Below, one piece after another: positions 7,405 through 56,071 of a stretch of 64,000 bases of DNA (position 1 is its first letter; the number at the start of each line of letters is the position of its first letter). A program made the translations under genes and the position numbers. Source of the DNA: a virus (lineage: Duplodnaviria > Caudoviricetes); IMG/VR virus record IMGVR_UViG_3300021185_002017; one strand, 5' to 3'. The notes under the pieces were generated by a model. That model was not told the origin of the DNA. It saw only the letters and a program-made list of their open reading frames with translations, and made no database searches.

Positions 7405-7434
7405 GTTAATTCTCCTGAATTGAATATATGCTAT

Positions 7435-7442
7435 TATTTATC
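7435..7442 (-). promoter_or_regulatory. Late promoter GATAAATA
   Basis: Exact motif upstream of 7404. Confidence 0.75.
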
Positions 7443-7445
7443 AAT

Positions 7446-12960: not shown

Positions 12961-13219
12961 TCTTTTCTTCCCGTTGGCTCTCTTTAATAACTTTTTTTAT
13001 GCCTCGGGAGAATTTGGAAGAATCTTTAGCACGAATGCTATTGACTATACGATTGGTTAAATCCTTTGCTTGATCTTCGCTGTAATGTGCTTCGATTCGT
13101 TCAATTAAATGTATTACACTTTCAATAAGGTGTTCGCCACGGTTTTCAACCGCATGATTTCTGTCTCTGTCTACAGAAATAAGATTTAATTCTTCTATTA
13201 TACTGCGAGTTTTACGCAC
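12944..13219 (-). CDS. Hypothetical late protein, first gene of the internal-protein operon
   Basis: GTG start, AGGAG RBS at 13226-13230 and late promoter at 13248. Confidence 0.7.
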   Translation of the reverse strand: MRKTRSIIEELNLISVDRDRNHAVENRGEHLIESVIHLIERIEAHYSEDQAKDLTNRIVNSIRAKDSSKFSRGIKKVIKESQREEKNESNS

Positions 13220-13247
13220 ATTACGCTCCTGTTAATAGGCTTAACAC

Positions 13248-13255
13248 TATTTATC
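13248..13255 (-). promoter_or_regulatory. Late promoter GATAAATA
   Basis: Exact motif immediately after the helicase stop codon. Confidence 0.75.
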
Positions 13256-13257
13256 AA

Positions 13258-14640
13258 TTAGAAGTCGTCATTCTTGCGTAAAAAGTCGACCATATTAAGT
13301 GCTTGTCCTACTGTGTCCTGTGTTTCAGGTTCATCTGCTTTAATACTACTGTTTCTTTTTAGTTGATCAACTAAACTGTTAGTACTCATTGTTAGAGAAT
13401 CTTCATCACCTTCTTCTAAATCTTCAATTCTTAATGTATCTGTATCAAATTTTAAATCAACTTTGCTACCAACACCTGCACTACTACGAGTTTTCATAAA
13501 TTGTATTTGATATCTACCTCGTTCTCGCATAGCATTACTTGTAAATATACCAATAACATTATCTGCTGTATTAACTTTACTGATACCACCTGCAATATGA
13601 CTGTGATCATATTCTACTTCTTCTACAGCACTTCTTCCTAACTGCGATGCTGTTGCATGTAGTATATCACGCTCTACTGCTAAGTTACGCAACTCTTCAG
13701 ATATGTATTTGTCTTTAACAAACAAGTTTTCTGCTGATATTTTAGCACTAATAGGCATCATTAAATCTAAGTAGTCAACTAATAAACAGTCTATTTTCTC
13801 ACCACATTCAATTTCATATTCTCGTAAAAATACTCTAACATCATTTGCATTTACACCACTTGGCATTTGCTTAACTCTGAGATTACCGGCGCCTTTTGCT
13901 TTCATACGCACTCGCAAATCAACATCGTCAATGTTTTTCATAACATCTCTTGTGCCATAACCACTAACCATTGCATCTAAACGCATACTAATAAGTTGTT
14001 CACTTAGCTCTAAACTGATATAGACTACATTTAGTCCAGCCATTACCCAATTAACTGCTAAGTTCTGTAAGAATAAACTTTTACCACCACCACTTGGAGC
14101 AGCAAATATATTAATCTCGCCTCTGTTCATGCCACCATATAACTTTTGATCAATACCTTTCCAACCTGTGCTAGTTGCACCTGCTTGTTGCTTGATCCAT
14201 TCAAGCCTTTCTTTAGGATTTTCAAAATAATCTAAGCCTAGATCTTTTACAAGACCAGTTTGTACTGCCGCTTTAATTTTATTTTCTACTGTGCCGTAGT
14301 CTTGTTTTTCGAGTAAGTCTGTGCTTTCAATGATTGCTGCTTCAAGTGCCTTGTGTCTACAAAATGTTTCAAACTCACGCAAGAACCAGTTGTGATGATC
14401 TGGTGTTATATTTTCAATTGGAAGTAATTCAACACCTCCTACTGCTTGTATTTGCTCCAGTGTGGGAATAGAATTAAATTCAGTGCTGTGATTTTGTAAT
14501 AATTCAACCGAAGGACGAAACTTTCTATTAAAGTATCCAGGGTCAACAATGTTTTGACATCTTGAGAACAATGTAGGATCACTGATCAAGAACCTCAAAA
14601 ACATTTCCTGTACTTCTTCGTTGTAATCTTTTATATCCAT
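13258..14640 (-). CDS. Replicative DNA helicase (DnaB/T4 gp41-like)
   Basis: Walker A AAPSGGGKS, YISLELS, VDYLDLM, HIAGGISKVNTADNVIGI, KTR. Confidence 0.92.
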   Translation of the reverse strand: MDIKDYNEEVQEMFLRFLISDPTLFSRCQNIVDPGYFNRKFRPSVELLQNHSTEFNSIPTLEQIQAVGGVELLPIENITPDHHNWFLREFETFCRHKALEAAIIESTDLLEKQDYGTVENKIKAAVQTGLVKDLGLDYFENPKERLEWIKQQAGATSTGWKGIDQKLYGGMNRGEINIFAAPSGGGKSLFLQNLAVNWVMAGLNVVYISLELSEQLISMRLDAMVSGYGTRDVMKNIDDVDLRVRMKAKGAGNLRVKQMPSGVNANDVRVFLREYEIECGEKIDCLLVDYLDLMMPISAKISAENLFVKDKYISEELRNLAVERDILHATASQLGRSAVEEVEYDHSHIAGGISKVNTADNVIGIFTSNAMRERGRYQIQFMKTRSSAGVGSKVDLKFDTDTLRIEDLEEGDEDSLTMSTNSLVDQLKRNSSIKADEPETQDTVGQALNMVDFLRKNDDF

Positions 14641-15617
14641 TATAGCATTCTCATCTTTACTTGTGATTTAATCTTATTATTGGTTGCGTATTTAATTATA
14701 CTCGCAACGGTTAAAAGTCTGCCATATTTGGCGACTGCATCTGCGGCATCTTTTACATCAACATGCCAAGGTGGGAAACTTATTTCCCAATTAAGTTCAA
14801 GAGCTTGTTCAATTAGCTCTTTACCTGCTGTATCTCTGTCAGGACATACAATAACTCGTTTACCTAATCTATCAATTAAGTGTGCCTGTTCTGGTGTTAT
14901 GCTGTTACCAAGTATACTAACACCGTCAACAAGTATAGCATCAAACACGCCTTCTGTGACAATTACAATTTCTCGTTCACTGTCAGCAAATGTATCAACA
15001 TTAAACACATATCCTGGTTGTAGTTTATGCAAATACTTTGGTGTTTGCTTGTCTGGTGGGGCAATATGTCTTCCTGTCCAGCCTACAATTTCTCCATTAT
15101 ATGTAAATGGCACAATAACTCTTTTCTTGTTTGCTATATCGTTAAAATGTAGCAAAGGGTATATGCCTAGTAGCCCTCGCTCTCTAGCATATTCTTTTAG
15201 AGCATTGCCATCTGCTAAACTATCAATTGTTTGTACATCTTCTGGCAATTCTACTGTGTCAAACTTGCTTAAATTATAAACATAGTTAGTACCTTCTGAC
15301 TCTTGTAAGTCGTCACTGTACTTTAACATTTCAACTTGCACTGCATGTATGTCACTTGTAGTGGCACCCATTTTCATTGCTAAGTCTTTATACTTCTTAC
15401 CCATGTAAGGATTAGGAGACCAACCTGTTTTGTGTCCACAGTTAAAGCAATTAAAACTAATCTTAGCACCATTAGAAATAACACCTGCACGTTTACGGTT
15501 ATCACTGCACACAGGACAATCAAATGTAGTCCAGCCACTAGGTGTCCTTGTACTACGCACTGGAAGATTGTCTACTAACAATCTATGTATTTGCTCTATT
15601 ACAGAATCCACACTCAT
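14640..15617 (-). CDS. DNA primase (T4 gp61-like; zinc finger plus Toprim)
   Basis: CPVC...CFNC zinc finger, EGVFDA and DRD Toprim motifs. The second ATG (15617) is preferred because the first (15623) abuts the -10 box. Confidence 0.9.
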   Translation of the reverse strand: MSVDSVIEQIHRLLVDNLPVRSTRTPSGWTTFDCPVCSDNRKRAGVISNGAKISFNCFNCGHKTGWSPNPYMGKKYKDLAMKMGATTSDIHAVQVEMLKYSDDLQESEGTNYVYNLSKFDTVELPEDVQTIDSLADGNALKEYARERGLLGIYPLLHFNDIANKKRVIVPFTYNGEIVGWTGRHIAPPDKQTPKYLHKLQPGYVFNVDTFADSEREIVIVTEGVFDAILVDGVSILGNSITPEQAHLIDRLGKRVIVCPDRDTAGKELIEQALELNWEISFPPWHVDVKDAADAVAKYGRLLTVASIIKYATNNKIKSQVKMRML

Positions 15618-15623
15618 AGGCAT

Positions 15624-15652
15624 ATTATAGCAGAGTTAAATATCAAAGTCAA
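15624..15652 (-). promoter_or_regulatory. Sigma70-type promoter TTGACT-N17-TATAAT with extended -10
   Basis: -35 at 15652-15647 and -10 at 15629-15624, preceded by TGC. Confidence 0.85.
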
Positions 15653-15659
15653 ATAGAAT

Positions 15660-16448
15660 TTAGTTTCTAACGTGAATATTGGAAATAGTACTATTGGCAT
15701 CGTCCGGGTAACTTATAACTCTTACCCAGTTGCAATTGACAGAAAATGATTTATGTAGGATATCAGTGGTACCAGAAATGGCTACATTACTTACTACATC
15801 AAACCAATCTGAATGTGCATCGTCGGCATCGGGTGTTGTATGCAAACAACTTGCTTGTATTTTTATATTTCCTGTATAGGTTGAATGATACACTGCTACA
15901 CTGTGTTGGGCATTTTGGAAGTTACTATCCAAGTTACCAAAGAACGCACTCGAAACAAAAACATTGTTTGTTGGTTCTAACATTGTAGTATTAAACTGTG
16001 TAGGGATTGGTTCGAGAACTGCTTGTTCAGATATTTCAATATCTAATGCAACATCATTATTTTGATTTGAATACATTGGTAAGTCTACACCGTTCTCGTT
16101 TGTTCTAGTAATATACATTCTATATAGACCTGGGTTAATATTTTGTAAATCGCCTTCTGTGAGATGTAACTTTACCATTCCTGTGTCGCTAGTAACTTCG
16201 ATTCTTTTAGTGAGTAGTCTAGTTCTAGATGCTGGATTCACAATGTATGCAACAACATCATCTGTGAATACAGGTTGTAGTTTTCTATCGCGGTTTCTAA
16301 TATTAAAGTTGATTGTATTAGTTAACCCTTTGTGTGCTATTAGTGATTTATTGTTCATTGGTTTGTTATCCACATGTAAGTTGTCGGCCTCAATTACGAG
16401 ATCTACTGAATTCTCGTACAAATATAGTCTGTTATTGGCATGATTCAT
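15660..16448 (-). CDS. Hypothetical late virion protein (beta-rich, baseplate/adaptor-like)
   Basis: 262 aa, AGAAAGGT RBS and late promoter upstream. Confidence 0.6.
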   Translation of the reverse strand: MNHANNRLYLYENSVDLVIEADNLHVDNKPMNNKSLIAHKGLTNTINFNIRNRDRKLQPVFTDDVVAYIVNPASRTRLLTKRIEVTSDTGMVKLHLTEGDLQNINPGLYRMYITRTNENGVDLPMYSNQNNDVALDIEISEQAVLEPIPTQFNTTMLEPTNNVFVSSAFFGNLDSNFQNAQHSVAVYHSTYTGNIKIQASCLHTTPDADDAHSDWFDVVSNVAISGTTDILHKSFSVNCNWVRVISYPDDANSTISNIHVRN

Positions 16449-16472
16449 ATAATATATACCTTTCTATTACAG

Positions 16473-16480
16473 TATTTATC
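16473..16480 (-). promoter_or_regulatory. Late promoter GATAAATA
   Basis: Exact motif, back-to-back with a plus-strand variant. Confidence 0.75.
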
Positions 16481-16489
16481 TATTACTAA

Positions 16490-16497
16490 GGTAAATA
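16490..16497 (+). promoter_or_regulatory. Late promoter variant GGTAAATA
   Basis: Lies exactly 5 nt before ATG 16503, the same spacing as the GATAAATA-N5-ATG sites. Confidence 0.6.
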
Positions 16498-16502
16498 TCG
16501 TT

Positions 16503-16874
16503 ATGCAAGAAATTGATCAAGAGCGGTTTCCGTTCATTACTGGAATTACCTATGCTAGTTCCGAGTATTACGGGATAGTAGTTAATTATGATAACACTAT
16601 ACTAACAATGTACGACCTAGCAAAAATGCCAGACTTGGAAACTAGAACTTCGTTTGTTACCATGGGTGAAACTTGGTGGTGGGAATCTAATCGACTATTA
16701 CCAATTGATGTGTTTTTGCATCACGAAATGAAACCTTACCAAAAATACTTAACCACAATGGTTATGAAAGATGTAGACCATATGTTTGGTCCAATGACTA
16801 CCTTACAGAATATGTTAAAGAAGCGTATTAAGAGGAGAGGTATTCAGTTACAAAATGTTAGGCGAACAGACTAA
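16503..16874 (+). CDS. Hypothetical protein
   Basis: Start moved from 16440 to ATG 16503 (MQEIDQERFPF) on the basis of the promoter position. Confidence 0.65.
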   Translation: MQEIDQERFPFITGITYASSEYYGIVVNYDNTILTMYDLAKMPDLETRTSFVTMGETWWWESNRLLPIDVFLHHEMKPYQKYLTTMVMKDVDHMFGPMTTLQNMLKKRIKRRGIQLQNVRRTD

Positions 16875-17440
16875 CCTTCACAAATTCTATTTAACTGTAC
16901 CACAATCGCTGTAGCAAATGCAATAGCATGAGCCTTCTTGAAATAGTATTCACCGGACTCAGGTTTTACCCAAACAGTTTTCTCTATCTCTTCAAAAGAT
17001 TTGCCTTGTAAATGTTTTTTACCTGGACGAATAATAGCAAGTATCATTGCTAGTTCTTCAACACTAGTAGGTTTGTATTCTTGCAATACATTTAAATAAT
17101 TGTTTACATGGTACAACTGAGATACTACTTCGTTGTGTAGCAAAAGTTCCCACAGTGGTTCAGTGTTAAGCAGTTTGTTTAAGTGTGCTTCGTCTTTGAT
17201 ATTTGCATACACACTGTTATTAAGATAGTCAACTTTGAACCAACCCTCTTCTTCTGCTTGTTTGTGATCTATTGTGCTGTATCCTTCTAATGGAAACTTA
17301 GGAATGTTCTGAAAGTAGACACCAGTATTGTGTTTGGTAAACTTACCATCCTTCTCAATACTTGCGGGTGTATGCTTGATAAGGTCGAGAAAGTTATCTC
17401 GATTAGCCATATCAATATCTACATCAAAATTAATCTTCAC
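16871..17440 (-). CDS. Miniature DNA polymerase III alpha (DnaE)-like protein, 189 aa
   Basis: NFDVDID (cf. PDxDxD), KHNTGVYF, FKVDYLN (cf. KxDxLG), LAIIRPG, YYFKKAHAIAFA (cf. YxFNKSH). Confidence 0.8.
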   Translation of the reverse strand: MKINFDVDIDMANRDNFLDLIKHTPASIEKDGKFTKHNTGVYFQNIPKFPLEGYSTIDHKQAEEEGWFKVDYLNNSVYANIKDEAHLNKLLNTEPLWELLLHNEVVSQLYHVNNYLNVLQEYKPTSVEELAMILAIIRPGKKHLQGKSFEEIEKTVWVKPESGEYYFKKAHAIAFATAIVVQLNRICEG

Positions 17441-20860: not shown

Positions 20861-21275
20861 ATTCTTTTAGTTCATCTTTAGAGTTTATCTGCTTTAGTAA
20901 GTCTACTTCTTCACCTTTCATATGAGGGAAGATACTGTAGATAAACTCGCTTACTTTATCTTTTTTCTTTTTAGCATTAGGTGGCTTTAGGTACGGATGG
21001 AATTGTACTTTACCAACACCACATGCACTTAGTAACAACCATTGCAATTCTGGGTGCTTACTAACTTCGCTATAATCTCTATTAACAAGTTCGTTGGTCA
21101 TATAGATGTAGTGAGCGGCATCCTTGCCTTGTACACTACTTGCGTAACGCATCATCATCCATGAACTAAATGCTTTCTTTTGTTCTGGTGTTAAGTTATT
21201 GTAGTACTTCCTATCACGCTTGTCAAGTGCGGCCATAATATCCTTTAACGGTATTGCTGGTGCCTTCTTAGCCAT
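20805..21275 (-). CDS. Clamp-loader small subunit-like protein (T4 gp62-like)
   Basis: Size and motifs (FSSWMMMRYAS, KHPELQWLLL) recall gp62-type proteins. Recognised from memory. Confidence 0.5.
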   Translation of the reverse strand: MAKKAPAIPLKDIMAALDKRDRKYYNNLTPEQKKAFSSWMMMRYASSVQGKDAAHYIYMTNELVNRDYSEVSKHPELQWLLLSACGVGKVQFHPYLKPPNAKKKKDKVSEFIYSIFPHMKGEEVDLLKQINSKDELKEYARSHGYDDKTIKDIFGK

Positions 21276-21798
21276 TAGTGTTTTCCTTGTATATTTTTAT
21301 GTAATGCTCTTCGCCTTTGGCAACATTTTCTATCCATGTAGTGTCAGCAGAATCGTCTGCACTATCGCTTACATACTTGTAGCACTTAAAGTCTACTTTT
21401 CTATCAGTACATGCTTTAGCAATTGCAAATGCTTCCATGTCAACAACATGGGCAGGATATTCTAAGTCTGGATCTGTAACAAAGTTATCGCCTGTGCTAC
21501 ATGTATATCCAACTCCTAACGAAATAGTAATAGGGTCTTTTGGTAAAAATAATTCAATTGCTTCTGGGCACTTGCCTTTGTCTCGCTCAACAAAATTTAC
21601 CATTTCGTGACATCCAGATTCTAACTTAATTCCACCTGCTGTACCAAAGTTCCAAACAGTTTGTGGGTTATGTTTTTCAATAAGTCTTGCCGCTGTTAAT
21701 GCCGCATTAATTTTACCAACGCCTGTAAAGAAAACATTATCCCACTTAGCCATAGTGGGTGCTTCACTTTCAAGTGCAATTAATATTAGATCTTTCAT
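21268..21798 (-). CDS. MTA/SAH nucleosidase-like protein (PNP_UDP_1 fold)
   Basis: TGVGKINAA, NFGTAGG, STGDNFV, VDMEAFAIAKAC, YVSDSAD. Start moved to 21798 (ATGA overlap with apt). Confidence 0.85.
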   Translation of the reverse strand: MKDLILIALESEAPTMAKWDNVFFTGVGKINAALTAARLIEKHNPQTVWNFGTAGGIKLESGCHEMVNFVERDKGKCPEAIELFLPKDPITISLGVGYTCSTGDNFVTDPDLEYPAHVVDMEAFAIAKACTDRKVDFKCYKYVSDSADDSADTTWIENVAKGEEHYIKIYKENTNG

Positions 21799-22325
21799 TC
21801 GTTTATATCCATGACGCTGAATGTTTCCACTCCGCAATAGTCCTTTAGTTTAGCAGTTCCTTCTAAGAAAGTCAAGTCTATTATGCAGGCATAATTTATA
21901 TCATACCCTCCTGCTTGTTTAATTAGTTCTACCATAGCATTAGCAGTTCCACCTGTAGCACTAACATCATCTACGATGCATATTCTATCAGTATATGCAA
22001 ACTCAACACTGTCTAGCATTTCTAAAGTTTCTTCACCATACTCTAATGTATATGAATACGACTTTACTTTGCCTGGCAATTTACCTGGCTTACGAACAAT
22101 GTGTAAAGGGATACCTAGTGCTAGTGCAACAGGAGCACCCCATATAAAGCCACGAGCATCGGGTGCAACAATCTGTGTTGCTTTGATACTTCTGCAATAT
22201 GCAACGACCTTATCTACAGTGTACTTAAATGCTTTTGGGTCTTCGAGTATGCTTGATATATCTTTGAACATGACTCCCTCTATTGGGAAGTCAGGTACAG
22301 TACGGAGTATTTTATTGAGATCCAT
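21795..22325 (-). CDS. apt: Adenine phosphoribosyltransferase
   Basis: VPDFPIEGVMFKDI, DARGFIWG, VRKPGKLPG, YTLEYG, IVDDVSATGGT. Confidence 0.95.
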   Translation of the reverse strand: MDLNKILRTVPDFPIEGVMFKDISSILEDPKAFKYTVDKVVAYCRSIKATQIVAPDARGFIWGAPVALALGIPLHIVRKPGKLPGKVKSYSYTLEYGEETLEMLDSVEFAYTDRICIVDDVSATGGTANAMVELIKQAGGYDINYACIIDLTFLEGTAKLKDYCGVETFSVMDINE

Positions 22326-23418
22326 ATAAGTCTAACTGCTCCCATGGTAAATCTTCTTTTCCAAAATGCCCATAGTTTGTGGTAGTAGTTAGATCTAAAT
22401 TGAATAAATCAAATCTATCAATTATTCCCTTTGGTGTTAAGTCAACAAGTTCTTGTAATTCTGCAACTAAGTCAGGCCTGACCTCGCCGTCAGCATAAAC
22501 ATACAAACTAGTTGGTTCAACTACACCAATAGCATAACTTAGTTGTACAGTACAGTTGTCTGCTTTGCCTGATGCTACAATGTTCTTTGCCAAATAGCGA
22601 GCCATATATGCTGCTGATCTGTCGACCTTAGTGCAGTCCTTACCTGAAAAAGCACCGCCCCCATGTGGAGCATAGCCGCCATAAGTATCAACAATAATTT
22701 TTCGTCCAGTAAGTCCTGTATCTCCATCTGGTCCTCCAATAACAAATCTACCCGTTGGGTTGATTAAAAATTCAGTTTCTGATAAATTAAACACACCGTC
22801 TAACTCATCGATAATGATTTGCTCAATTCTGTCACGAACAGTTTGTATACTTACATCATCGCTATGCTGAGTACTGCAAACAATCTTGCTAATACCTACA
22901 GGTTGATTAATGCTATCGTAATCCATTGTAACTTGACTTTTACTATCAGGTCCAATCCATTCTTCGCCGTTGCGTCTTTCTTTTGCAAGTCTGCGTAGAA
23001 TTTTATGACTATAGTAAATAGCACTTGGCATATACTCAGGTGTTTCTTTACATGCATAGCCAAACATAAGTCCTTGGTCACCTGCACCAAACTCATCAGT
23101 ACCTAATGCAATATCTGCACTTTGTCCGTGTAGTTTGTTTACTACTGTTAGGTTAGCCCAATGGAAACCTTCTTGTTCGTATCCAATATTCTTAACTACT
23201 TGTCTAACTATAGATTCTACAGTTTCATCATCGATAGGCATGTCTCTTTTGTATTCGCCAGCAACAACAACACTATTAGTTGTTACAAGTGTTTCTACTG
23301 CCGCTCTATGATTAATATTACCGTTGATTATTGCATTAGCAATACTATCTGAAATTAAGTCAGATATTTTGTCTGGGTGTCCTTCGCTAACGCTCTCGCT
23401 AGTAAATTGATAAGACAT
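22312..23418 (-). CDS. metK: S-adenosylmethionine synthetase
   Basis: FTSESVSEGHPDK, GAGDQGLMFGYA, NPTGRFVIGGP, GLTGRKIIVDTYGG, GGGAFSGKD. Start moved to 23418 (GGAG RBS). Confidence 0.97.
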   Translation of the reverse strand: MSYQFTSESVSEGHPDKISDLISDSIANAIINGNINHRAAVETLVTTNSVVVAGEYKRDMPIDDETVESIVRQVVKNIGYEQEGFHWANLTVVNKLHGQSADIALGTDEFGAGDQGLMFGYACKETPEYMPSAIYYSHKILRRLAKERRNGEEWIGPDSKSQVTMDYDSINQPVGISKIVCSTQHSDDVSIQTVRDRIEQIIIDELDGVFNLSETEFLINPTGRFVIGGPDGDTGLTGRKIIVDTYGGYAPHGGGAFSGKDCTKVDRSAAYMARYLAKNIVASGKADNCTVQLSYAIGVVEPTSLYVYADGEVRPDLVAELQELVDLTPKGIIDRFDLFNLDLTTTTNYGHFGKEDLPWEQLDLYGSQ

Positions 23419-23491
23419 ATATTCTATCTCCTTTTTAATTTTATGTACCTTGTATTTACAGTTTCTGCGAACTGTATACACGGTTTACTGG

Positions 23492-26239: not shown

Positions 26240-26268
26240 ATTATAGTCTACTTGTATGTTAATGTCAA
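26240..26268 (-). promoter_or_regulatory. Perfect sigma70 promoter TTGACA-N17-TATAAT
   Basis: Overlaps the 3' end of the TonB-receptor gene. The uvsW ATG follows 5 nt after the -10 box. Confidence 0.85.
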
Positions 26269-27822
26269 GAAGAACTTGCGTCCTCCTGCGTCATATCCTG
26301 GTAATACTTCAACAACATCATCTAGTACATCTTGTACTGTAAATGCTAATCCAAGTTTATCAGATAGTTGTTTTCTCAATACAAAGTCTACTGACTTAAT
26401 ATCATCCAACGATGCACCATCATACGGTCCAGGGTCTCTATCAAACTGTGCTGTATAACTTAATTCAGCAGTTGTTTCACCGAAACTAGCAAAGTATGAA
26501 ATACGACCTTTGTACGCAGGTACTCTAGGTTGATCAGTATCTGTATATGCTACAAAAACATTTAAACTACCATAAGGTACAGCATACATGTCTTGGAATC
26601 TGACACCTTTGGTTTCATATTCGCCTGTGTTAACATATTGCTGAGAACTGCCATCGTAGTCAATATTTTCATCAAAGTCATATGCAAAGTATGAAAGACC
26701 TAAGTAACCAATTTCAAATCCAGTTCCTTCTTCAGGCTTCAAACCTAAGTTTGGTTTTACCCATGAGTCGCCGTATTGTTGATACAATGTAGGATTACGA
26801 TAACTTGTACTAATGTTAGCAAAGAAACCTTTACTATTATCAAAGCCAAGTCTGTATACTCTTGCATCTTCACTTACTCGTGTGCCAAACTGCAACTGGT
26901 TGTTATATGTAATAACAGCATAGCCACTAACATCATCCTGTGACTCACCAATGTAGTTTTCTTTATCGTATGTAATACCTGACACAATAGTTGTTACAGG
27001 ATTAAGATTAAAAGTATCTCTGGCATCAAAGTAATAACGATCTGCATCATTTGAATAAGTACTTACACCTTCGGTGAAGTATTCACTTTCAGTTTTGTTA
27101 TAACCAATTGTTACATGTTCGTTCCTTACACTAATGTCAGTCCTTGTACCTTCTTGTACACATTCATTTGACTGTGAAAAAGATGATGTATAACAATTAT
27201 CATAATCGTATTCATAATCTACATGTGACATTGCTAAAGTAAAACCATAAATGTCTCTGACTGATTTAATAGATGTATTTTTATAGTCATCTCTTTCAGT
27301 ATTATCGTTTCGCACACTGTCATTAGATACATCAAATGATGATACACTTATGGAGTCAAGTATTGCTACATTTAGCAATTGATGATGCTCCCCAAGTCTA
27401 AGAACTGCTTGGTCTTCGATTTTGTCATTTATAAACACTGTTCCGCCTAGGCTACCAGAGCCATAAAGAACACTGTTAGGTCCTGAAACAATGTTAACTG
27501 TCTCGAGTCCACTCACAACATCATGTGCAAAGTCATACCAGCCTGAGCCGGAATCATTTGCTGGTACACCGTTCCTGTACACGGTTGTGTGTGTAGTTTG
27601 AGTACCTCGTTCATTAAAGCCAGCAAATCCACCATATCCACCTGCTACAAATGAAGTAGCCGGCATAACAATTTCAATAATTGACATGTCGTCTGTTACA
27701 TCTGTGGTGTCTACTTGACTTACTGTTCCAACGACTACAATCTCTTCAATGAGATTAGAGTCTTCTGCTAAAACTGCATTACTCGTTGCGAGTAATAAAA
27801 GCAGTGTTACTAAGTTTTTCAT
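26248..27822 (-). CDS. TonB-dependent outer-membrane receptor (compact, BtuB-like size)
   Basis: Signal peptide, TonB-box-like EEIVVVG, plug motifs (VYRNGVP, VSGPNSVLYGSGSLGGTV) and C-terminal GRKFFLTLTYK strand. Confidence 0.88.
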   Translation of the reverse strand: MKNLVTLLLLLATSNAVLAEDSNLIEEIVVVGTVSQVDTTDVTDDMSIIEIVMPATSFVAGGYGGFAGFNERGTQTTHTTVYRNGVPANDSGSGWYDFAHDVVSGLETVNIVSGPNSVLYGSGSLGGTVFINDKIEDQAVLRLGEHHQLLNVAILDSISVSSFDVSNDSVRNDNTERDDYKNTSIKSVRDIYGFTLAMSHVDYEYDYDNCYTSSFSQSNECVQEGTRTDISVRNEHVTIGYNKTESEYFTEGVSTYSNDADRYYFDARDTFNLNPVTTIVSGITYDKENYIGESQDDVSGYAVITYNNQLQFGTRVSEDARVYRLGFDNSKGFFANISTSYRNPTLYQQYGDSWVKPNLGLKPEEGTGFEIGYLGLSYFAYDFDENIDYDGSSQQYVNTGEYETKGVRFQDMYAVPYGSLNVFVAYTDTDQPRVPAYKGRISYFASFGETTAELSYTAQFDRDPGPYDGASLDDIKSVDFVLRKQLSDKLGLAFTVQDVLDDVVEVLPGYDAGGRKFFLTLTYK

Positions 27823-45314: not shown

Positions 45315-46451
45315 CTAAAAGGCTTTTAATATGATAGTTGTGTCATTAAAACGCCCGTTCATCTTAGTATCCGTTGTCGTAAGGTCCTTAAACGCCTTAC
45401 TAAACTTAGTCTTTGCATTTCCAGTCCAGTTTTTAATTTGTTCTGCTGGTTTACGCAATGTTTTTTGTACACTCTTAGTAGGATGAAAATCTTGTAGTGT
45501 TGTTCCTTTAACAGTCATGCCGCCTTTTAGATCATCTACTACATACATGCCTACTTTACGAGTTTTTGTATTATACACCCAAATCTCTGTTGCGTCAATG
45601 ACTTCAGTTGGATTAATACTTGCAATACCTAATCCACTGTCATTAATCTGGAACTTCAATTTGCTTACAACTTTTTCTTTACTTACTGCTTTAGGCTTAC
45701 GAGTCTTTCTGTTTGCTTTGCCTGTTAAGATAAATGCATCACAAGCCGCATTAATTTTTTCATAAATGGCCAAGAAGTCTTTACGCATTTTCTTGTCCAT
45801 GAAGTTGTATGCTTCTTTAATGTCTTCGTCTTTCCATTCTACAACTTCTAATGCTTCTCGATATGCTGAATCAAAATCGTCTTTAATAATTTTTGCATGA
45901 TTAGGTTTTACAACGCCACCACCGTACACTTTCATTTCTGTAAACGGGTCAAACTTTTTAAGATCAAACTTACCAGTTACTAAATCATCAATGTGACCTT
46001 CCCAATTGCCTAATAGGCCTTGCACCTGCTCGAACATTCTTTGTTGTATACTAACTTTGGGTTTTGCATCAGCCGCCTTTGCTTCTTTCTCTTCTATGAT
46101 GTTTTCGGCTTTGTTTTCTAATGCAGGAATTTTATTTAATAGATGTTCCTTAACATCTGGGTTCATGTAGCCATTTGTTTTGTGCCAAATGTAAGTGTGT
46201 TTAGCAAACGAACTAAACCACACATCAGGAACCTTTCTTAACTTCTTGATTAGGTCTTTGTCTAAGCCGCTATCTTTTTCTAACCAAGTAAAGATTGTAG
46301 ATGCACATTTCTTGTCTGCTACTTCGTAATGTACAAAGTATTCAAACTTGCGATACAATTTAGTCTTCTCTTCGTCAGTTTTAAGGGTATGTATTTCCTG
46401 CCACTTAGGTTCTGGCATTAAATATATGTCTTTACTTTTGCGTCTGGCCAT
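45315..46451 (-). CDS. Hypothetical Lys-rich protein
   Basis: 378-aa ORF under the upstream sigma70 promoter. Confidence 0.75.
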   Translation of the reverse strand: MARRKSKDIYLMPEPKWQEIHTLKTDEEKTKLYRKFEYFVHYEVADKKCASTIFTWLEKDSGLDKDLIKKLRKVPDVWFSSFAKHTYIWHKTNGYMNPDVKEHLLNKIPALENKAENIIEEKEAKAADAKPKVSIQQRMFEQVQGLLGNWEGHIDDLVTGKFDLKKFDPFTEMKVYGGGVVKPNHAKIIKDDFDSAYREALEVVEWKDEDIKEAYNFMDKKMRKDFLAIYEKINAACDAFILTGKANRKTRKPKAVSKEKVVSKLKFQINDSGLGIASINPTEVIDATEIWVYNTKTRKVGMYVVDDLKGGMTVKGTTLQDFHPTKSVQKTLRKPAEQIKNWTGNAKTKFSKAFKDLTTTDTKMNGRFNDTTIILKAF

Positions 46452-46684
46452 TAGTCACTCTCAATTTCATAAGGATTGTTATATACTTCTTTAACCAATG
46501 CTGGCCATTGATTAAATCCGATTATGCTATTTTTATCTTTCAACGCATTTTTATCCTTGAGAAATTGAACAATTTGTATGATCCCGCTGAACTTACCGTT
46601 TAGTTGTCCAGCTCTAAACGAAAAGTAACTGTTAAGAATTACAAATGCAAGTGCTAGTAGTATCTCATTAAATTCCATACCCAT
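46451..46684 (-). CDS. Small protein with N-terminal transmembrane helix
   Basis: EILLALAFVILNSYFSF, with GGAGA RBS. Confidence 0.65.
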   Translation of the reverse strand: MGMEFNEILLALAFVILNSYFSFRAGQLNGKFSGIIQIVQFLKDKNALKDKNSIIGFNQWPALVKEVYNNPYEIESD

Positions 46685-46705: not shown

Positions 46706-46734
46706 ATTTTAGCATTAGTTATCATCGATGTCAA
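46706..46734 (-). promoter_or_regulatory. Sigma70 promoter TTGACA-N17-TAAAAT with extended -10
   Basis: Read directly. Confidence 0.8.
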
Positions 46735-46737: not shown

Positions 46738-48606
46738 CTACTTATGATTGAGTGGAGAAATTAGGTTCGTTTGCCAGTTCCTACGGCGTCCAAAGAAGAG
46801 CCAATCGATGTGTTCGTCGGCTGTTTTTGCAAAATTATTGTAGCGATCACTGACTGTTACCGCTGAAGTTTGTAAAAGATCTGATGTTAATTCGACTGTT
46901 ACAGGTTCTGTAATGTACTGATCAAATTGTTTTGGCATTAGCAATGCTAATTTTTTGTAGTCGTTGATTACTTCATATGGCACATTAGCATATTGATCTG
47001 TAAAGTCTACTACTAGCTCTACTAAACGAGGCACATAATTATTTAACTGTGCAATAGGCATGAAACTGTTGATACCTTTCCATCCACCCTTGATAGTGTA
47101 GCCACCAATAGTATGCAAATTGTATCCTGTTTGTTTCCAAAGCGAGTATCCTTCTTTGTGTTGTTCGAACCATTTACTAATCTCTGGATCAGTTTGTACA
47201 TACTCCATTAGTGATGCATAGAATTCGCTGTATTGTATGTTTGCTTTACGATACATATAGTCTGCGATAAGTGTAGTTACACCGTAACTATGCATACCCA
47301 CAACAAACCAAGAGTACTTACTTAGATCGTACATTTCTTCTTTTGTTAATGTGCTAGAACTACTAATAATGTTAATTGACTCTGCTGTTCCGTTGTTAAT
47401 TTCTTGTTCTACATCACTAGTAGTTTCATAAAAATAATCGTATGCTCTAAATGTTTCCATTCCAAAAGTTTCTTTGTCTTCTACATTCATAGGGGCATTT
47501 TCAATCAACTGTAAATAAAAAATATCCATGTTAATAACATTGTTTTCAAACATTGTATCGATAACTTTTAACCAACTGCTGTATGTTTCGCCTGGCATAC
47601 CCATGATAAGTTCTGTCATAATTGGCAAATTATATTCTTTTGCTTTTTGTGTTACTACTGCAACACTGTTAATTTTCATGTTGTCTCGTTTAACATTCTT
47701 TAACACTTCGGGTGTTGTTGACTGAAAACTTGCAGCTGGTGCATTTTGAATATTAGCGTCTAATAACTTTCTACCAATTTGGTAAACTGCATCTATATTG
47801 TTTTTTGCATAACTAGCACTAAGAACTTCTGGGATACCTGTTCGTTGTTTTGCTTCTATCATGTAGTCTGCTATTTCTAAATCTCGTTTGAATGCACCAA
47901 AGTTACTTGCAGTAAAATTAAAATAAGGCATCTTGTTATCAGCACACCAGTTAATCTCATCATGTATTCGTTGCATGTGAAACTTATGCATTTTACTTGC
48001 TGTTGCACTACCCCAGTCACAGTAAGTACACTTGAATGGGCAACCTCTGTCTGTTTCTATCGTAGGCACCCATTCTATATCTGGGTTTGCTTCTATTAAA
48101 CTATCAAACACTCCTGTTAAATATGGACTTGGTAATTTGTCTAGTTCTTTTATTCTTTCAAACTGTAATGTTTTTGGCAAGTCTTCTCCAGCAATAATGT
48201 TTCGCATCACTGCAAGAGCGGCTTGTTCGCCTTCGTTAATTGCTATAGAATCTATATATGGGTGTTTGTCAAAGAAGTTTTTATCTCGCCATGGTATTTC
48301 AGGTCCACCTGCTACAATGATAATATCTGGGTTAACTCTTTTGAGTGTTCTTAACAGTTTGTAACAGTAATTAATATTCCACATATACATACTGCAAAAT
48401 ATTACATCACAATCAACAAGTTGTTCAACTGCATCGCCTATTAAAGGTCTTTGAAAAATCCAACTGTGTATTTTAAAGTTATCTTGTATATCTTTATATT
48501 GATTTACATAACTCCACAGGCATCCTAAAGTGTACGGCAAGTACCAACTGTTCAGATGTTTTGGTCCTGTCTGAAAATTAGGCTGTATTAGTCCTACGGT
48601 TTTCAT
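46738..48606 (-). CDS. Cobalamin (B12)-binding class B radical SAM enzyme
   Basis: N-terminal B12-binding Rossmann domain (LPYTLGCL, SMYMWN, IVAGGPE, NEGE) and ETDRGCPFKCTYCDWG (CxxxCxxC), ELIMGMPGET. Confidence 0.88.
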   Translation of the reverse strand: MKTVGLIQPNFQTGPKHLNSWYLPYTLGCLWSYVNQYKDIQDNFKIHSWIFQRPLIGDAVEQLVDCDVIFCSMYMWNINYCYKLLRTLKRVNPDIIIVAGGPEIPWRDKNFFDKHPYIDSIAINEGEQAALAVMRNIIAGEDLPKTLQFERIKELDKLPSPYLTGVFDSLIEANPDIEWVPTIETDRGCPFKCTYCDWGSATASKMHKFHMQRIHDEINWCADNKMPYFNFTASNFGAFKRDLEIADYMIEAKQRTGIPEVLSASYAKNNIDAVYQIGRKLLDANIQNAPAASFQSTTPEVLKNVKRDNMKINSVAVVTQKAKEYNLPIMTELIMGMPGETYSSWLKVIDTMFENNVINMDIFYLQLIENAPMNVEDKETFGMETFRAYDYFYETTSDVEQEINNGTAESINIISSSSTLTKEEMYDLSKYSWFVVGMHSYGVTTLIADYMYRKANIQYSEFYASLMEYVQTDPEISKWFEQHKEGYSLWKQTGYNLHTIGGYTIKGGWKGINSFMPIAQLNNYVPRLVELVVDFTDQYANVPYEVINDYKKLALLMPKQFDQYITEPVTVELTSDLLQTSAVTVSDRYNNFAKTADEHIDWLFFGRRRNWQTNLISPLNHK

Positions 48607-48607
48607 T

Positions 48608-49525
48608 TTACTTAGGATCTTGGTGTGTTACCCACCACTCGATTGTTCTTTCTAAGCCTTCGTGTAAATCTACTTTTGGTTCCCATCCTAGCATTTTTGT
48701 AATTTTACGATTAGTACTGTTAAGTAAAAATATTTCACCAGGTCTATGTGGCTTGTAATTCCATTCTATTTCGCCATTCCATCCTAACTTATGTGCAATC
48801 ATGTTTGCATAGTCCTTAATTTTAATTGCATTGTCTGGTCCTATGCAAAATATTTCTCCTGCACATTTGTCTGGGTTCTCAATAACACATTTCCATGCCT
48901 GAAGTAAATCATCAATGTAAATAAAGTTTCTGTAAGGCTCTGCATAACCTAATTGAATCTTTTCATGGTTATTAATCATTTGATTAATAATTTGTTCTGT
49001 TACAAAGAAGTCGTTATCTTTTCTACCATACGCATTAGTTTGCCTAATAGCAGTAAACGGTAAGCCATAACTTCTATGTGCATATTCTAAATACTTTTCA
49101 CAAGCATACTTGGCAACTGCATACGGAGCATTCGGATTTGGTTGTGTATCTTCGTCAAATGCTATCACATAGTTTTCTTGTCCAGCTCTGATTAAATCAC
49201 TAATAGGTTGCCAGCCATACACTTCCATTGTACTAGCAAACACAAAATTCTTTAAGTTTTTAAGTTCTCTACATGCTTCAATTAAATTTACTGTACCAAC
49301 ATAATTAATATCACTAAATTCTATTTGTTCTGTAAAACTTTTCTCTACTTCTGTTCTAGCGGCTAAGTGTACTATTATTTCTGGGTCAAATCTGCGTAAT
49401 TCTTCTTTTACATTTTCGTGTTCTCTGAGATCGCAACCTAACGCACAGATTTCGTGCTTATCTTGTAGCAATGGCACCATATGTGAGCCAATAAACCCAT
49501 CATGCCCTGTAATAAAAATTCTCAA
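48608..49525 (-). CDS. NAD-dependent NDP-sugar epimerase/dehydratase
   Basis: ITGHDGFIG, HLAA, ASTMEVYG, YAVAK (YxxxK), NAYG. TTG start with GAGGA RBS. Confidence 0.92.
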   Translation of the reverse strand: MRIFITGHDGFIGSHMVPLLQDKHEICALGCDLREHENVKEELRRFDPEIIVHLAARTEVEKSFTEQIEFSDINYVGTVNLIEACRELKNLKNFVFASTMEVYGWQPISDLIRAGQENYVIAFDEDTQPNPNAPYAVAKYACEKYLEYAHRSYGLPFTAIRQTNAYGRKDNDFFVTEQIINQMINNHEKIQLGYAEPYRNFIYIDDLLQAWKCVIENPDKCAGEIFCIGPDNAIKIKDYANMIAHKLGWNGEIEWNYKPHRPGEIFLLNSTNRKITKMLGWEPKVDLHEGLERTIEWWVTHQDPK

Positions 49526-49550
49526 TTGTGTGTCCTCATTTGATAGTAAC

Positions 49551-49558
49551 TATTTAGC
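49551..49558 (-). promoter_or_regulatory. Late promoter variant GCTAAATA
   Basis: Only promoter-like motif seen upstream of the epimerase-rSAM pair. Confidence 0.5.
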
Positions 49559-49577: not shown

Positions 49578-49585
49578 GATAAATA
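49578..49585 (+). promoter_or_regulatory. Late promoter GATAAATA (N5 to ATG)
   Basis: GATAAATA-GTGTT-ATG at 49591. Confidence 0.8.
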
Positions 49586-51131: not shown

Positions 51132-51575
51132 ATGGAAGAGATGAGAGAACTTAATGAGCAACGAGTTTGCGAATTATTAAATGAAATAGTAGAACTAGAA
51201 ATGGCTGGTGTTGTAAGATACGCACACAGTTCATTGATGATTACTGGACCATATAGATTACCTATTGTAACTTTTTTGCAAGAACAAGCAAATGAAAGTT
51301 TACAACATGCATTACAAGCAGGCGAATTTATAACAGGATTCGAAGGTCATCCAAGCCAAAAGATTTCTAAAATTGAAGAGAATCACGACCACAGTGTATT
51401 ACAAATACTCACCGAAAGTTTAGAACACGAAATGAATGCTGTCAGCAAGTACAAGGAACTATTAAATGAAGTTGCTGATGCGAGTATTATGTTAGAAGAA
51501 TATGCTAGAGGTCAAATTGGCATGGAAGAGCAACATGCTTTAGAAATCAAAAAGATGCTCAAGGACTTTGGATAA
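51132..51575 (+). CDS. Bacterioferritin/ferritin-like four-helix-bundle protein
   Basis: ELEMAGVVRY, NESLQHA, LEHEMNAVSKY, MEEQHA. Confidence 0.85.
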   Translation: MEEMRELNEQRVCELLNEIVELEMAGVVRYAHSSLMITGPYRLPIVTFLQEQANESLQHALQAGEFITGFEGHPSQKISKIEENHDHSVLQILTESLEHEMNAVSKYKELLNEVADASIMLEEYARGQIGMEEQHALEIKKMLKDFG

Positions 51576-54013: not shown

Positions 54014-56071
54014 TTATTTAGAAGTAGCAATAAAAACACCGTCCCAATCTTTAGGCAGTGTTTGAGTCTTTTGAAATTCGCAACGCTCAATCCACATATC
54101 ATAATAACCTTTCATCTTACCTTCAAAGGCATCGTGTAGTTGCTCACATAATATAATTGCTTTATCAAAGTTTTGTTTACGATATTGCATGTGCATATCT
54201 TCGTGCATTTGTCTTGCTTTTGCATACTTGCCTACTTTAATATCAAGTACTGTGTATATTTCGATGCCCACAGTCTTTCCTTTTACTGCTAGGTCATCTA
54301 CTTTAAGATAAAAGAATTTATTATGTGTGTGCTTGTAAGTGTCTCCTCCCACTAACAACAAGCAACCATATTCCTTACACTTACTTTCTATTCTCGCGGC
54401 AGTACTAACTGCGTCTCCGAGTATGTCATATGAATGTCTGGCAGTGGAGCCCATCTCCCCAATATAACCGAGCCCAGTATTAATACCAGCACCCATACCA
54501 ACTGGCGGTCTACCTTCTTTAACAATTTTATCATTGAATTCCTCTACTGCTCTAAGCATTAGTAATCCTGTGTTCACAGCACTTGCAGGATGATCTGGGT
54601 CGTCCATTGGTGCATTGTGTATGTGCATACTTGCATCGCCAATATACTTAATAACCATTCCGTCTGCATCAAGTATAGGCTGTGTAATGGCATCCATGTA
54701 ACCATTCATTATTTTTGTTAGTCCTTGAACATCATCACCAAAACTTTCTCCTAGTGGGGTGAAGCCACGCAAATCTGAGAAGCATATACTAACTTCTTTT
54801 TTCATACCTTGTTTAATTAAGTCTGGATTTTCTTGCAACATTCTAACAACTGTAGGAGAGGCATATCCAGCAAATTGTTTCTGTATTTCTGCTCGTAGTT
54901 TAAACTGTATCCAAAAGTTATTAAAACTTGCCTGTGTAAAGATTAAGAATGCACTTATTGCAGGAAAAGTAGCATCAAATAAAACTAAGTTTGCTGTATA
55001 AGAATGTACACTATAATATACAATTCCGCCTATAATAGTGACTGTAGTTACTAATCCTGCCCATATAGGCAACTTATATATTGCTAAAGCAATTAATATC
55101 ATGCTCAACAACGCACACAGAAGCTCTGTAAGCAACGATAATTCAGATCTGGTAATGTTACTCCCGTCTATAAAATTCTGTAGCATAGACGCTTGTATTT
55201 GCTGTGGTAGTACGTTGCCTCTAGGTGTGGGTACCGGATTGGCAACGCCTTCTGCACTCACACCCACAATAACGAACTTTCCGCCTAAGTTAGGCAGTTC
55301 ACTCGCATCTACATATTCGTGTTCTTCAAAAGTGTTATTAAATCGTATATATGCTGTACCATTTGGTGTTGTTACTATTGGTTCAAAGGGTGGTACTGCA
55401 AACTCTTGTATTCCTATTTCACTAGTCTTTAAAATGTAACTAGGTTTTTGTGTATAAGTCCTTAACATCTCAATAGCAAAACTAGGATATATCTTTCCCT
55501 CTACTCCAATCGCTAGTGGGTAAGTTCTTGTTTGGTTATCAGGCTGAGGAGCACTTGCTACTACTCCAATACCTGCGGCTACACTTTCTAGTGGTTCAAT
55601 ATTCGTTACGAGATTCGGCCATGTCAGCAAGTAGTTGGTAGCGGGTACTGGGCCTATCGTTCCTGTACCAATGTGCGGACCTGTACTCTTTACTCCTCTG
55701 GAAGATGGGGTTTGGGATAAAACTATGCCGTTGTCTTTCATCCAACTGGAAAGTACTGGATCTCCTCCAAACCGGTCCGTCTCCGGAAACATCACTGTTA
55801 GCCCTATCATTCCTGCATTCTTGTTTCTCAGGTCTGATATTAGTTGTGCAAAATTCTGTCTTGGCCATGGCCATTGTCCCCACTGTTGTAGGCTTTTTTC
55901 GCCAATGTTTATTACTACAACTTCGTTACTTTGTTTAACTTCATCTAATTGTTGGTAGTAATCGAATGTCTGTGAACGCAGACTTTGAACTGGTGTTGGG
56001 TCAGCAACTTTGAGAGCTGTAAGTAATACTATAGATATTGCTACGGCCCAGCCGCTGTATAACCATTTCAT
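54014..56071 (-). CDS. CHASE2-domain membrane class III adenylate cyclase
   Basis: N-terminal TM, CHASE2 (GQWPWPRQNFAQLI, VVASAPQPDNQTRTYPL), three TM helices, then cyclase FSDLRGFT, KYIGD, GINTG, YDILGDAVSTAARIE. Confidence 0.93.
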   Translation of the reverse strand: MKWLYSGWAVAISIVLLTALKVADPTPVQSLRSQTFDYYQQLDEVKQSNEVVVINIGEKSLQQWGQWPWPRQNFAQLISDLRNKNAGMIGLTVMFPETDRFGGDPVLSSWMKDNGIVLSQTPSSRGVKSTGPHIGTGTIGPVPATNYLLTWPNLVTNIEPLESVAAGIGVVASAPQPDNQTRTYPLAIGVEGKIYPSFAIEMLRTYTQKPSYILKTSEIGIQEFAVPPFEPIVTTPNGTAYIRFNNTFEEHEYVDASELPNLGGKFVIVGVSAEGVANPVPTPRGNVLPQQIQASMLQNFIDGSNITRSELSLLTELLCALLSMILIALAIYKLPIWAGLVTTVTIIGGIVYYSVHSYTANLVLFDATFPAISAFLIFTQASFNNFWIQFKLRAEIQKQFAGYASPTVVRMLQENPDLIKQGMKKEVSICFSDLRGFTPLGESFGDDVQGLTKIMNGYMDAITQPILDADGMVIKYIGDASMHIHNAPMDDPDHPASAVNTGLLMLRAVEEFNDKIVKEGRPPVGMGAGINTGLGYIGEMGSTARHSYDILGDAVSTAARIESKCKEYGCLLLVGGDTYKHTHNKFFYLKVDDLAVKGKTVGIEIYTVLDIKVGKYAKARQMHEDMHMQYRKQNFDKAIILCEQLHDAFEGKMKGYYDMWIERCEFQKTQTLPKDWDGVFIATSK

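Follow-up and report, generated by a model that had tools for sequence, protein, structure and literature searches.

The window analysed here is a 64,000-nt stretch of DNA (IMG/VR record IMGVR_UViG_3300021185_002017; GC content ~37%) from an uncultured marine T4-like jumbo phage. It carries two coupled genes, one encoding an extended short-chain dehydrogenase/reductase (SDR) and the other a cobalamin (B12)-binding radical S-adenosylmethionine (SAM) enzyme, for which we use the short form rSAM. We propose that the SDR is the core enzyme of a sugar pathway, the product of which would be built into a phage glycan late in infection, and that the B12 enzyme optionally tailors the nucleotide sugar by C-methylation. 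The proposal is tentative, although it may well be right. It builds on four observations: the classes of the two enzymes, the coupling of their genes, the asymmetric co-occurrence of these genes among phages, and the sugar-cluster context of the wider rSAM family. The enzyme classes themselves and their chemistry are already known.

The B12 enzyme is assigned to the TokK/CysS type

By sequence and by model, rSAM is a class B radical SAM enzyme of the TokK/ThnK/CysS type. Pfam detects a B12-binding domain (PF02310, 35.1 bits; cutoff 32.1) and a Radical_SAM domain (PF04055, 41.5 bits; cutoff 29.5). The cluster motif CX3CX2C is present as C189-x3-C193-x2-C196 within DRGCPFKCTYCDW, and these three cysteines, together with W76 and W198, are invariant across 68 homologues. 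A sequence search of the PDB identified TokK (E 1.3e-65), CysS (E 2.5e-50) and, weakly, AprD4; no other solved relatives were found by sequence. Sequence identity to TokK and CysS is 22–23%, and the sequence-only alignment reaches residue 475. The AlphaFold model, built from the 68 homologues (pLDDT 88.7), matches TokK over the full length (TM 0.86/0.82 over ~679 columns) and CysS with a TM of 0.76. The modelled N-terminal cobalamin-binding domain superposes within the TokK match. This full-length match indicates that all three domains are common to both proteins, including the C-terminal domain that was described as 'distinct to TokK'. It ends, in rSAM, with a conserved aromatic-Gly-basic motif, which reads FFGRRRNW here (basic residues R607–R609) and WWGNKKGAYLY or WFGKRYSATL in cellular homologues.

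TokK and ThnK (carbapenem C6 alkylation) and CysS (cystobactamid alkoxy extension) are cobalamin-dependent radical SAM enzymes that methylate sequentially. In TokK, Trp76 is positioned under the corrin and Trp215 beside cobalamin and substrate (10.1101/2021.07.10.451909). These residues align to W76 and W198 of rSAM, so that the likeness to TokK and CysS comprises the three-domain architecture, the CX3CX2C motif and the equivalents of both tryptophans. With architecture and motifs in common, radical methylation of an sp3 carbon, possibly iterative, would be expected of the phage enzyme, which is probably a C-methyltransferase. An earlier, sequence-only reading of this DNA had placed it among class B enzymes of the C-methylating type, an assignment borne out by the PDB search and the fold match. 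The phage enzyme differs from TokK and CysS in being coupled to a nucleotide-sugar SDR, with neither an antibiotic cluster nor pantetheine-related genes around it.

Class B radical SAM enzymes include non-methylases. It is highly improbable, in our view, that rSAM is one of these and catalyses another cobalamin-radical reaction, such as a ring contraction or a rearrangement of the OxsB or HpnJ kind, on a sugar or nucleoside. There are weak NCBIfam matches to HpnJ, BchE and AprD4, and AprD4 and OxsB are among the fold matches. However, these matches (E ~1e-14; TM 0.47–0.52 for TsrM, OxsB and AprD4) are far weaker than those to the methylases TokK and CysS, and both Trp residues typical of the latter are the invariant ones named above.

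The SDR is assigned to the nucleotide-sugar enzymes

Sequence and model identify the SDR as a nucleotide-sugar enzyme that uses C4 redox chemistry. It matches the Pfam families Epimerase (PF01370, 150 bits; cutoff 20.9) and GDP_Man_Dehyd (154 bits) as well as phrog_540, 'nucleotide-sugar epimerase' (E 1.5e-66). Its motifs are G7-x2-G10-x2-G13, D32, T99-M100-E101 and Y135-x3-K139; the three glycines, T99, Y135 and K139 are invariant in 21 and in 38 orthologues. Conservation extends well beyond them, as 147 of the 305 positions are invariant across the 21 phage orthologues, motifs included. All of the 50 best PDB matches of the SDR model (pLDDT 89.6) are nucleoside diphosphate (NDP)-sugar SDRs with TM values of 0.76–0.84, in keeping with the two-domain fold of this family, in which the C-terminal domain binds the NDP-sugar. 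They comprise 4-epimerases, 4,6-dehydratases, 4-reductases and decarboxylases, with no clear winner. The best match is the GalE-like TM0509 (27–28% identity), and MoeE5 (6kv9) is another PDB hit of the SDR.

The protein stays below every equivalog cutoff of NCBIfam: RmlB and LegB reach ~136 bits, GalE 100 and Fcl 87 (136.7 bits against a cutoff of 365 for RmlB, TIGR01181; 100.2 bits against 262 for GalE, TIGR01179). From the earlier designation 'NDP-sugar epimerase' the nucleotide-sugar enzyme fold can thus be kept, while the epimerase subtype is not borne out by cutoffs or structures. With the extended-SDR enzymes TM0509 (UDP-Glc 4-epimerase, 4zrm), RmlB, GMD and RMD the phage SDR shares the fold, the GxxGxxG motif, the catalytic Thr and YxxxK. 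It differs from them by a short N-terminal region and by forming its own, highly conserved phage clade, whose members are 62–98% identical across hundreds of contigs; a 326,582-bp ENA contig, for instance, encodes an SDR with 98% identity. More than 2400 homologues were found (the top 120 clusters being 69–98% identical), and more than 1000 full-length homologues of rSAM, which shows that both genes are real.

The two enzymes might instead work on a substrate other than a sugar. rSAM would then alkylate a small molecule tethered to pantetheine, CoA or a carrier, as TokK, ThnK and CysS do, and the SDR would be a reductase or dehydrogenase of that pathway. Indeed, the structures of TokK and CysS, by far the closest, contain pantetheinylated substrates, which the N- and C-terminal domains hold, and the SDR weakly matches thioester- and fatty-acyl-reductase families (NAD_binding_4, E 1.2e-13; TIGR01746, E 6.6e-12). 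Its sugar-nucleotide matches, however, are ~25–30 orders of magnitude better, and its top structural matches are all NDP-sugar enzymes. No gene for a carrier protein, CoA ligase, polyketide synthase or non-ribosomal peptide synthetase is located nearby, a 77-aa neighbour being a membrane protein, and the cellular homologues of rSAM occur in sugar clusters. We therefore regard a tethered non-sugar substrate as improbable.

Cellular homologues of rSAM are found among sugar-nucleotide genes

Cellular homologues of rSAM, ~30–33% identical, are spread over many phyla. An extended SDR is encoded in the flanks of 40 of the 59 non-Clostridial cellular loci, in 27 of these within 2.5 kb. Among the 150 nearest neighbours of the cellular rSAMs, 25 belong to Epimerase/GDP_Man_Dehyd, 17 are aldo-keto reductases and 11 are GHMP kinases; transketolase halves and GT2 glycosyltransferases are further neighbours. 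Three loci were inspected, from Bradyrhizobium guangxiense (L098), an Enterobacterales metagenome-assembled genome (MAG; L100) and the marine Rickettsiales MED652 (L101). Each has the order SDR(s), B12 rSAM, aldo-keto reductase of ~320 aa. The surrounding clusters contain RmlC-like, NTP-transferase, DegT, NeuB, glycosyltransferase and ABC-2 transporter genes and are of the surface-polysaccharide type (O-antigen- or capsule-like). GHMP kinase, NUDIX and E1/transketolase halves are frequent in that cellular module. By gene association, the rSAM family thus appears tied to sugar-nucleotide metabolism, which agrees with the sugar link made in the sequence-only reading.

A different arrangement was seen in gut and rumen Clostridia (L026, L032, L036 and ~18 other Clostridia/Acutalibacteraceae loci), where two to three rSAM paralogues are arranged in tandem with no SDR nearby.

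Close rSAM orthologues follow the SDR gene in all 37 loci counted, while most SDR loci lack rSAM

Co-occurrence was counted from both sides, in 37 IMG/VR loci having an rSAM at least 39% identical to that of the window, and in 79 loci having an SDR orthologue, where rSAM was looked for within 5 kb. In all 37 rSAM loci, an orthologous SDR (67–98% identical) is located directly upstream on the same strand, with two small genes in between in a single case, one of them with a weak DUF6071 match. Stop and start codons of the two genes overlap in relatives. Contigs from ENA and JGI have the same order, some with two tandem rSAM copies. Such a tandem pair follows the SDR in L005–L008, L105 and L106; the two copies are 50% and 45% identical to the rSAM of the window.

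Seen from the SDR, 64 of the 79 loci lack a B12 rSAM, and such a gene is present in only about 10. Two of the loci (L183 and L186) correspond to the neck locus of the window except for rSAM, the SDR gene running straight into that for the 378-aa protein. In the SDR tree, neck loci that lack rSAM are found at five separate places among those which have it. About eight non-neck loci, from several branches of this tree, carry a different TokK-type rSAM (30–36% identical) 18–31 nt behind the SDR. In distant relatives, the SDR is 67–76% identical, like gp13 or the deoxynucleoside monophosphate (dNMP) kinase, and rSAM just 38–54%. The sequence-only reading would have been put in doubt by a pair that is rarely adjacent in homologous loci. 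Adjacency proved complete from the rSAM side and confined to a minority of loci from the SDR side.

This asymmetry, with most SDR loci being without rSAM and five separate absences in the neck lineage, indicates that rSAM is an optional tailoring enzyme rather than one half of an obligate pair. Related phages appear, from trees and gene content, to have gained or lost the B12 enzyme several times. The simplest reading is a pathway centred on the SDR, the product of which is tailored, in some phages only, by a fast-evolving B12 enzyme.

The asymmetry bears also on the stage at which a sugar might be methylated. The chiral carbons methylated by GenD1 and MoeK5 are sugar carbons; assembled pseudo-oligosaccharides are the substrates of GenK and GenD1, and MoeK5 takes a lipid-linked intermediate from an early stage. 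Likewise, the phage B12 enzyme might C-methylate the sugar only once this has been transferred to an acceptor linked to a lipid, a protein, a glycan or DNA, in which case the SDR would do no more than supply the donor sugar. The wide occurrence of the SDR without rSAM is what one would expect if the unmethylated sugar were already used. On the other hand, tight translational coupling right behind the SDR recurs in several contexts, and the basic C-terminal motif would, speculatively, suit a phosphorylated handle such as NDP. We consider methylation after transfer unlikely, though a serious candidate, and prefer the nucleotide sugar as substrate.

As to the origin of the phage enzyme, all sequences at least 37% identical to that of the window form a clade in the rSAM tree (support 0.98) that includes none of the sequences taken from GTDB genomes. 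One node further out (support 1.0), just two 'genome' contigs join, and the one that was looked up is phage-like. Relatives of rSAM are encoded on at least 593 contigs of IMG/VR and in at least 594 stretches of GTDB genomes. A protein search of 50,697 phage records with rSAM gave a single weak match. On a 186-kb T4-like contig (L009/L010), a 42%-identical rSAM is immediately preceded by the genes for the major capsid protein gp23 and a SegE-like homing endonuclease; it has no SDR nearby, and a TPR/Glyco_transf_9-like gene is found on the opposite strand.

Outside the neck locus, SDR orthologues are found in long co-directional clusters on contigs of ~42–364 kb (217–364 kb for the largest). These clusters hold N_Twi radical SAM genes, 2-oxoglutarate (2OG)-Fe(II) oxygenases and sometimes GTP cyclohydrolase I. 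One such 2OG oxygenase has sub-cutoff matches to 'sporadic carbohydrate cluster' families.

GTP cyclohydrolase I also occurs beside a more distant rSAM. A contig of a Haliscomenobacter MAG (L097) contains, at ~4400–17000, a phage-like region with a 33%-identical B12 rSAM. In addition, this region encodes an epimerase, a DegT fragment, GTP cyclohydrolase I, HIT, a 500-aa radical SAM protein, PTPS, a methyltransferase, DUF6071 and a 5'-3' exonuclease, and looks like a GTP-derived modification pathway. DUF6071 proteins adjoin the B12 rSAM family in three phage contexts (L013, 9908–10639; L097, 15328–16059; L132, 3724–4497).

Could the module of the window be part of a similar pathway from GTP to a 7-deazapurine or pterin, serving for instance DNA hypermodification, in which the B12 enzyme methylates a base, a pterin or an attached sugar? 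The L097 region, where the rSAM homologue has GTP cyclohydrolase I, PTPS, HIT, further radical SAM genes, the epimerase and the exonuclease as neighbours, would fit, as would GTP cyclohydrolase I next to SDR orthologues in 11 of 78 loci and the dNMP kinase in the same operon as the pair. However, no FolE, QueC, QueD, QueE or DpdA-like gene is found in the annotated parts of the window. The position of the dNMP kinase is ancestral, since Pseudomonas phage PA5oct has this gene but not the pair, and the SDR fold is that of sugar-nucleotide enzymes. We regard this possibility as most improbable.

Location of the gene pair and its predicted late promoter

Both reading frames have exactly the extent given in the sequence-only reading, with the correction that they are on the minus strand (Table 1). 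A single base separates the SDR stop codon TAA (48610–48608) from the rSAM ATG, so that the earlier distance of 1 nt is accurate. In a relative with 86% identity (L002), the SDR start codon at the aligned position is ATG instead of TTG.

Table 1. Features of the SDR–rSAM locus; positions refer to the window.
Feature	Position	Strand	Remarks and basis
Extended SDR gene, 305 aa	48608–49525	minus	TTG start, GAGGA 7 nt before; Pfam
B12-binding radical SAM (rSAM) gene, 622 aa	46738–48606	minus	ATG start at 48606; Pfam
Shine–Dalgarno sequence GAGGA	49533–49537	minus	7 nt ahead of the SDR TTG start; sequence reading
77-aa membrane protein gene	46451–46684	minus	one hydrophobic segment; translation
Late-promoter-like box GCTAAATA	49551–49558	minus	25 nt between box and SDR TTG start; sequence reading
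Late box GATAAATA of the divergent virion-protein gene	49578–49585	plus	back-to-back with the SDR box; sequence reading

The late-like motif that had been noticed ahead of the pair is present in the sequence. It matches the window's own late consensus GATAAATA in seven of eight bases, and at the aligned position in the relative L002 the match to GATAAATA is perfect. Of the 73 copies of the core TAAATA on the two strands of the window, 19 are located 8–70 nt upstream of a same-strand start, where ~2.4 would be expected from the share of sequence, so that the enrichment before starts exceeds chance. When boxes up to ~80 nt ahead of a start were listed separately, GATAAATA accounted for 16 of the 20, including those of the sheath and gp13-like genes. 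Late transcription of the pair from this predicted promoter is plausible.

The box of the divergent virion-protein gene (Table 1) has a bearing on the start of that gene. Its reading frame is listed from a TTG at 49576, and an ATG at 49591 comes 5 nt after the box. As this layout recurs at five other genes of the window, the gp13-like gene among them, the true start is probably ATG 49591, on a nearly leaderless late transcript. A near-consensus sigma-70-type promoter (46706–46734, minus strand; TTGACA, 17 nt, TAAAAT, with TG; 11 of 12 matches) is located in the 53-nt gap between the rSAM stop codon and the 77-aa gene. The number of such sites across the region is at chance level.

Isolated phages gave no DNA-level similarity match to the window. 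The tail sheath is 42% identical to that of PA5oct. Downstream of rSAM, the genes on the same strand are those for the 77-aa membrane protein, a 378-aa protein (phrog_11903), a gp13-like protein (phrog_211), the dNMP kinase and the sheath. A divergent operon begins 50 bp upstream of the SDR and encodes a virion structural protein (phrog_11591), a lysozyme, a ferritin-like protein, gp15 and a NUDIX protein. The pair had been described as lying between gp13 and gp14. The gp13-like gene is indeed downstream; as to gp14, profile comparison (hhalign) of T4 gp14 with each of the flanking 378-aa and 353-aa proteins gave a probability of 0.1, and both proteins are without Pfam and NCBIfam matches, so that this identification is not supported. 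In PA5oct, the block formed by the 378-aa homologue, gp13, dNMP kinase and sheath genes is present without the SDR–rSAM pair. The expression 'inserted among neck genes' is therefore fair relative to PA5oct, but the SDR is a long-standing resident of the marine lineage.

The 77-aa protein was considered as a carrier protein or as a precursor peptide for rSAM, and both roles were rejected: it has a hydrophobic helix, shows no carrier-like features and persists in the absence of rSAM. Its gene is found in nine neck loci without rSAM and is missing from 10 neck loci with it; the protein is not tied to the rSAM enzyme. Relatives have extra genes upstream of the SDR (about 296, 402, 353, 162 and 180 aa), none of which occurs in the window and which gave only faint Pfam, NCBIfam or PHROG signals (cupin, 2OG-Fe(II), ADI/DDAH-like, zf-C2HE).

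Two further genes of the surroundings may be mentioned. The gene for the ferritin-like protein (51132–51575; PF00210, E 1.2e-14), flanked by those for the tail lysozyme and gp15, is present in L001 and L002 and was not detected in more distant relatives. At 54014–56071, the window encodes a 685-aa protein in which a CHASE2 sensor is fused to an adenylate/guanylate cyclase domain, and a similar gene flanks the locus in the relative L011.

Discussion

We propose that SDR and rSAM act as a module for sugar tailoring in two steps, found in uncultured T4-like jumbo phages of the sea and expressed from a late promoter that would deviate slightly from the consensus. The proposal includes, as assumptions, the substrate, the order of the steps, methylation as the reaction, the late timing and the glycan as target. 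The results do not favour any one of the three uses offered in the sequence-only reading, namely virion glycosylation, remodelling of the host surface and DNA hypermodification. In the first step, the SDR would bind a host- or phage-made nucleotide sugar and NAD(P) and proceed via a C4-keto intermediate to epimerisation, 4,6-dehydration or reduction. In the second, optional step, the TokK-type B12 enzyme would tailor the SDR product. Its [4Fe-4S] cluster would generate a 5'-deoxyadenosyl radical, which takes a hydrogen from an unactivated sugar carbon; the resulting carbon radical would accept the methyl group of methylcobalamin, and a second SAM would re-methylate the cobalamin. Methylation may be repeated, as it is by TokK and CysS. 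The sugar, now branched by a C-methyl or a longer alkyl group, would be added to a late glycan by phage glycosyltransferases encoded outside the locus. Related phages would differ in this glycan through having or lacking the methylase and through its fast divergence.

The window also encodes MetK, a phosphoribosyltransferase and a protein resembling methylthioadenosine/S-adenosylhomocysteine (SAH) nucleosidases in an overlapping trio, and a 524-aa TonB-dependent receptor (21268–23481 and 26248–27822 cover the trio and the receptor). The best match of the latter is to the vitamin B12 receptor family TIGR01779, with 58.7 bits against a cutoff of 599.7. Trio and receptor may supply SAM, clear SAH and 5'-deoxyadenosine, and perhaps import B12 for the radical SAM enzymes of the phage.

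The nearest functional precedents, by analogy, appear to be GenD1 and the pair MoeE5/MoeK5. GenD1 and MoeK5 are cobalamin-dependent radical SAM enzymes which methylate chiral substrate carbons (PMC8950095). The pathway of MoeK5 includes the UDP-GlcA 4-epimerase MoeE5, and moeE5, moeK5 and moeO5 make the first monosaccharide intermediate (PMC3814723). Thus moenomycin (MoeE5 and MoeK5) and gentamicin (GenD1/GenK) biosynthesis resemble the phage module in combining an SDR-type sugar epimerase or oxidoreductase with a class B methylase of a sugar carbon. GenK, GenD1 and MoeK5 are taken here as functional analogues of rSAM only. They belong to the secondary metabolism of actinomycetes and take antibiotic intermediates rather than free NDP-sugars as substrates. 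The parallel to GenK and GenD1 drawn in the sequence-only reading therefore stands as a functional analogy, but not as one to the nearest relatives; the closest solved enzymes are TokK and CysS.

With respect to location, the marine T4-like pelagimyophages and cyanomyophages have variable regions by the neck genes, and the radical SAM cassettes carried there vary from one close relative to another (Zaragoza-Solas et al., 2020, PMC7029224). That study describes neither B12-dependent enzymes nor an SDR–rSAM pairing. SDR orthologues of other phages occur in enzyme-rich clusters like the host recognition cluster and the glycan islands of pelagimyophages and cyanomyophages (PMC7029224). The module of the window differs from these islands in consisting of two genes which are located apart from the tail-fibre island, at the 5' edge of the block from gp13 to the sheath.

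Several points weigh against our proposal. TokK and CysS, both solved relatives, bind pantetheine-tethered substrates that are not sugars. Arg280 of TokK, which binds the carbapenam carboxylate, aligns to a Ser in rSAM (in '...VLSASYAKN'); this indicates a different pocket and substrate, so that rSAM should not be a carbapenam methylase, but it does not point to a sugar. The best NCBIfam match of rSAM is the KedN5 family (NF033712; 215.6 bits, E 1e-63), which covers residues 23–394, leaves the C-terminal third uncovered and stays below the curated cutoff of 700, so that the enzyme is not a member. In the SDR, the T-D-E active-site motif of RmlB appears as T99-M100-E101, with Asp replaced and Glu kept, and the matches spread over epimerases, dehydratases, reductases and decarboxylases. 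The adjacency of both genes within the neck lineage is partly shared ancestry and to that extent not independent evidence. By Pfam and PHROG annotation, the SDR–rSAM locus contains no glycosyltransferase, nucleotidyltransferase or sugar-1-kinase. GTP cyclohydrolase I and PTPS are neighbours of some relatives of both genes, a hint at chemistry derived from purines or pterins. Finally, literature searches turned up characterised members for neither the phage clade nor the cellular clade of the sugar clusters.

A bolder version of the proposal is also conceivable, although we think it rather unlikely. The TokK-like phage enzyme would build methyl, ethyl or isopropyl branches stepwise on the nucleotide sugar, and its gain, loss, duplication and divergence would act as a glycan-recoding switch in the arms race with the host. 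The same family would do so in bacterial clusters of the O-antigen type, and the phage would depend on scarce marine B12, maybe obtained via its own BtuB-like receptor. To our knowledge, such stepwise branching chemistry has so far been known only from antibiotic pathways; class B radical SAM methylases in general are known almost entirely from the synthesis of antibiotics, cofactors and lipids.

In literature searches, we found neither a phage-encoded B12 radical SAM enzyme nor a characterised B12 methylase acting on a nucleotide sugar for a surface glycan. The searches likewise gave no report of a TokK-type enzyme coupled to a nucleotide-sugar SDR, of its abundance in a phage-derived clade or of its patchy presence among syntenic phages. 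The rSAM family is large, and in its tree the phage clade stands clearly apart from those cellular sequences that were sampled. That some syntenic phages possess rSAM and others lack it amounts to a natural experiment. Should the proposal be wrong, the pair would still be a clean target for enzymology, consisting of two soluble proteins with confident models. If it is correct, the module would provide a handle on the products of the 'glycan islands' of marine phages and would add a demand for B12 to phage infection in B12-poor seawater. It would also predict C-alkylated sugars in those bacterial O-antigens whose biosynthesis lacks an explanation.

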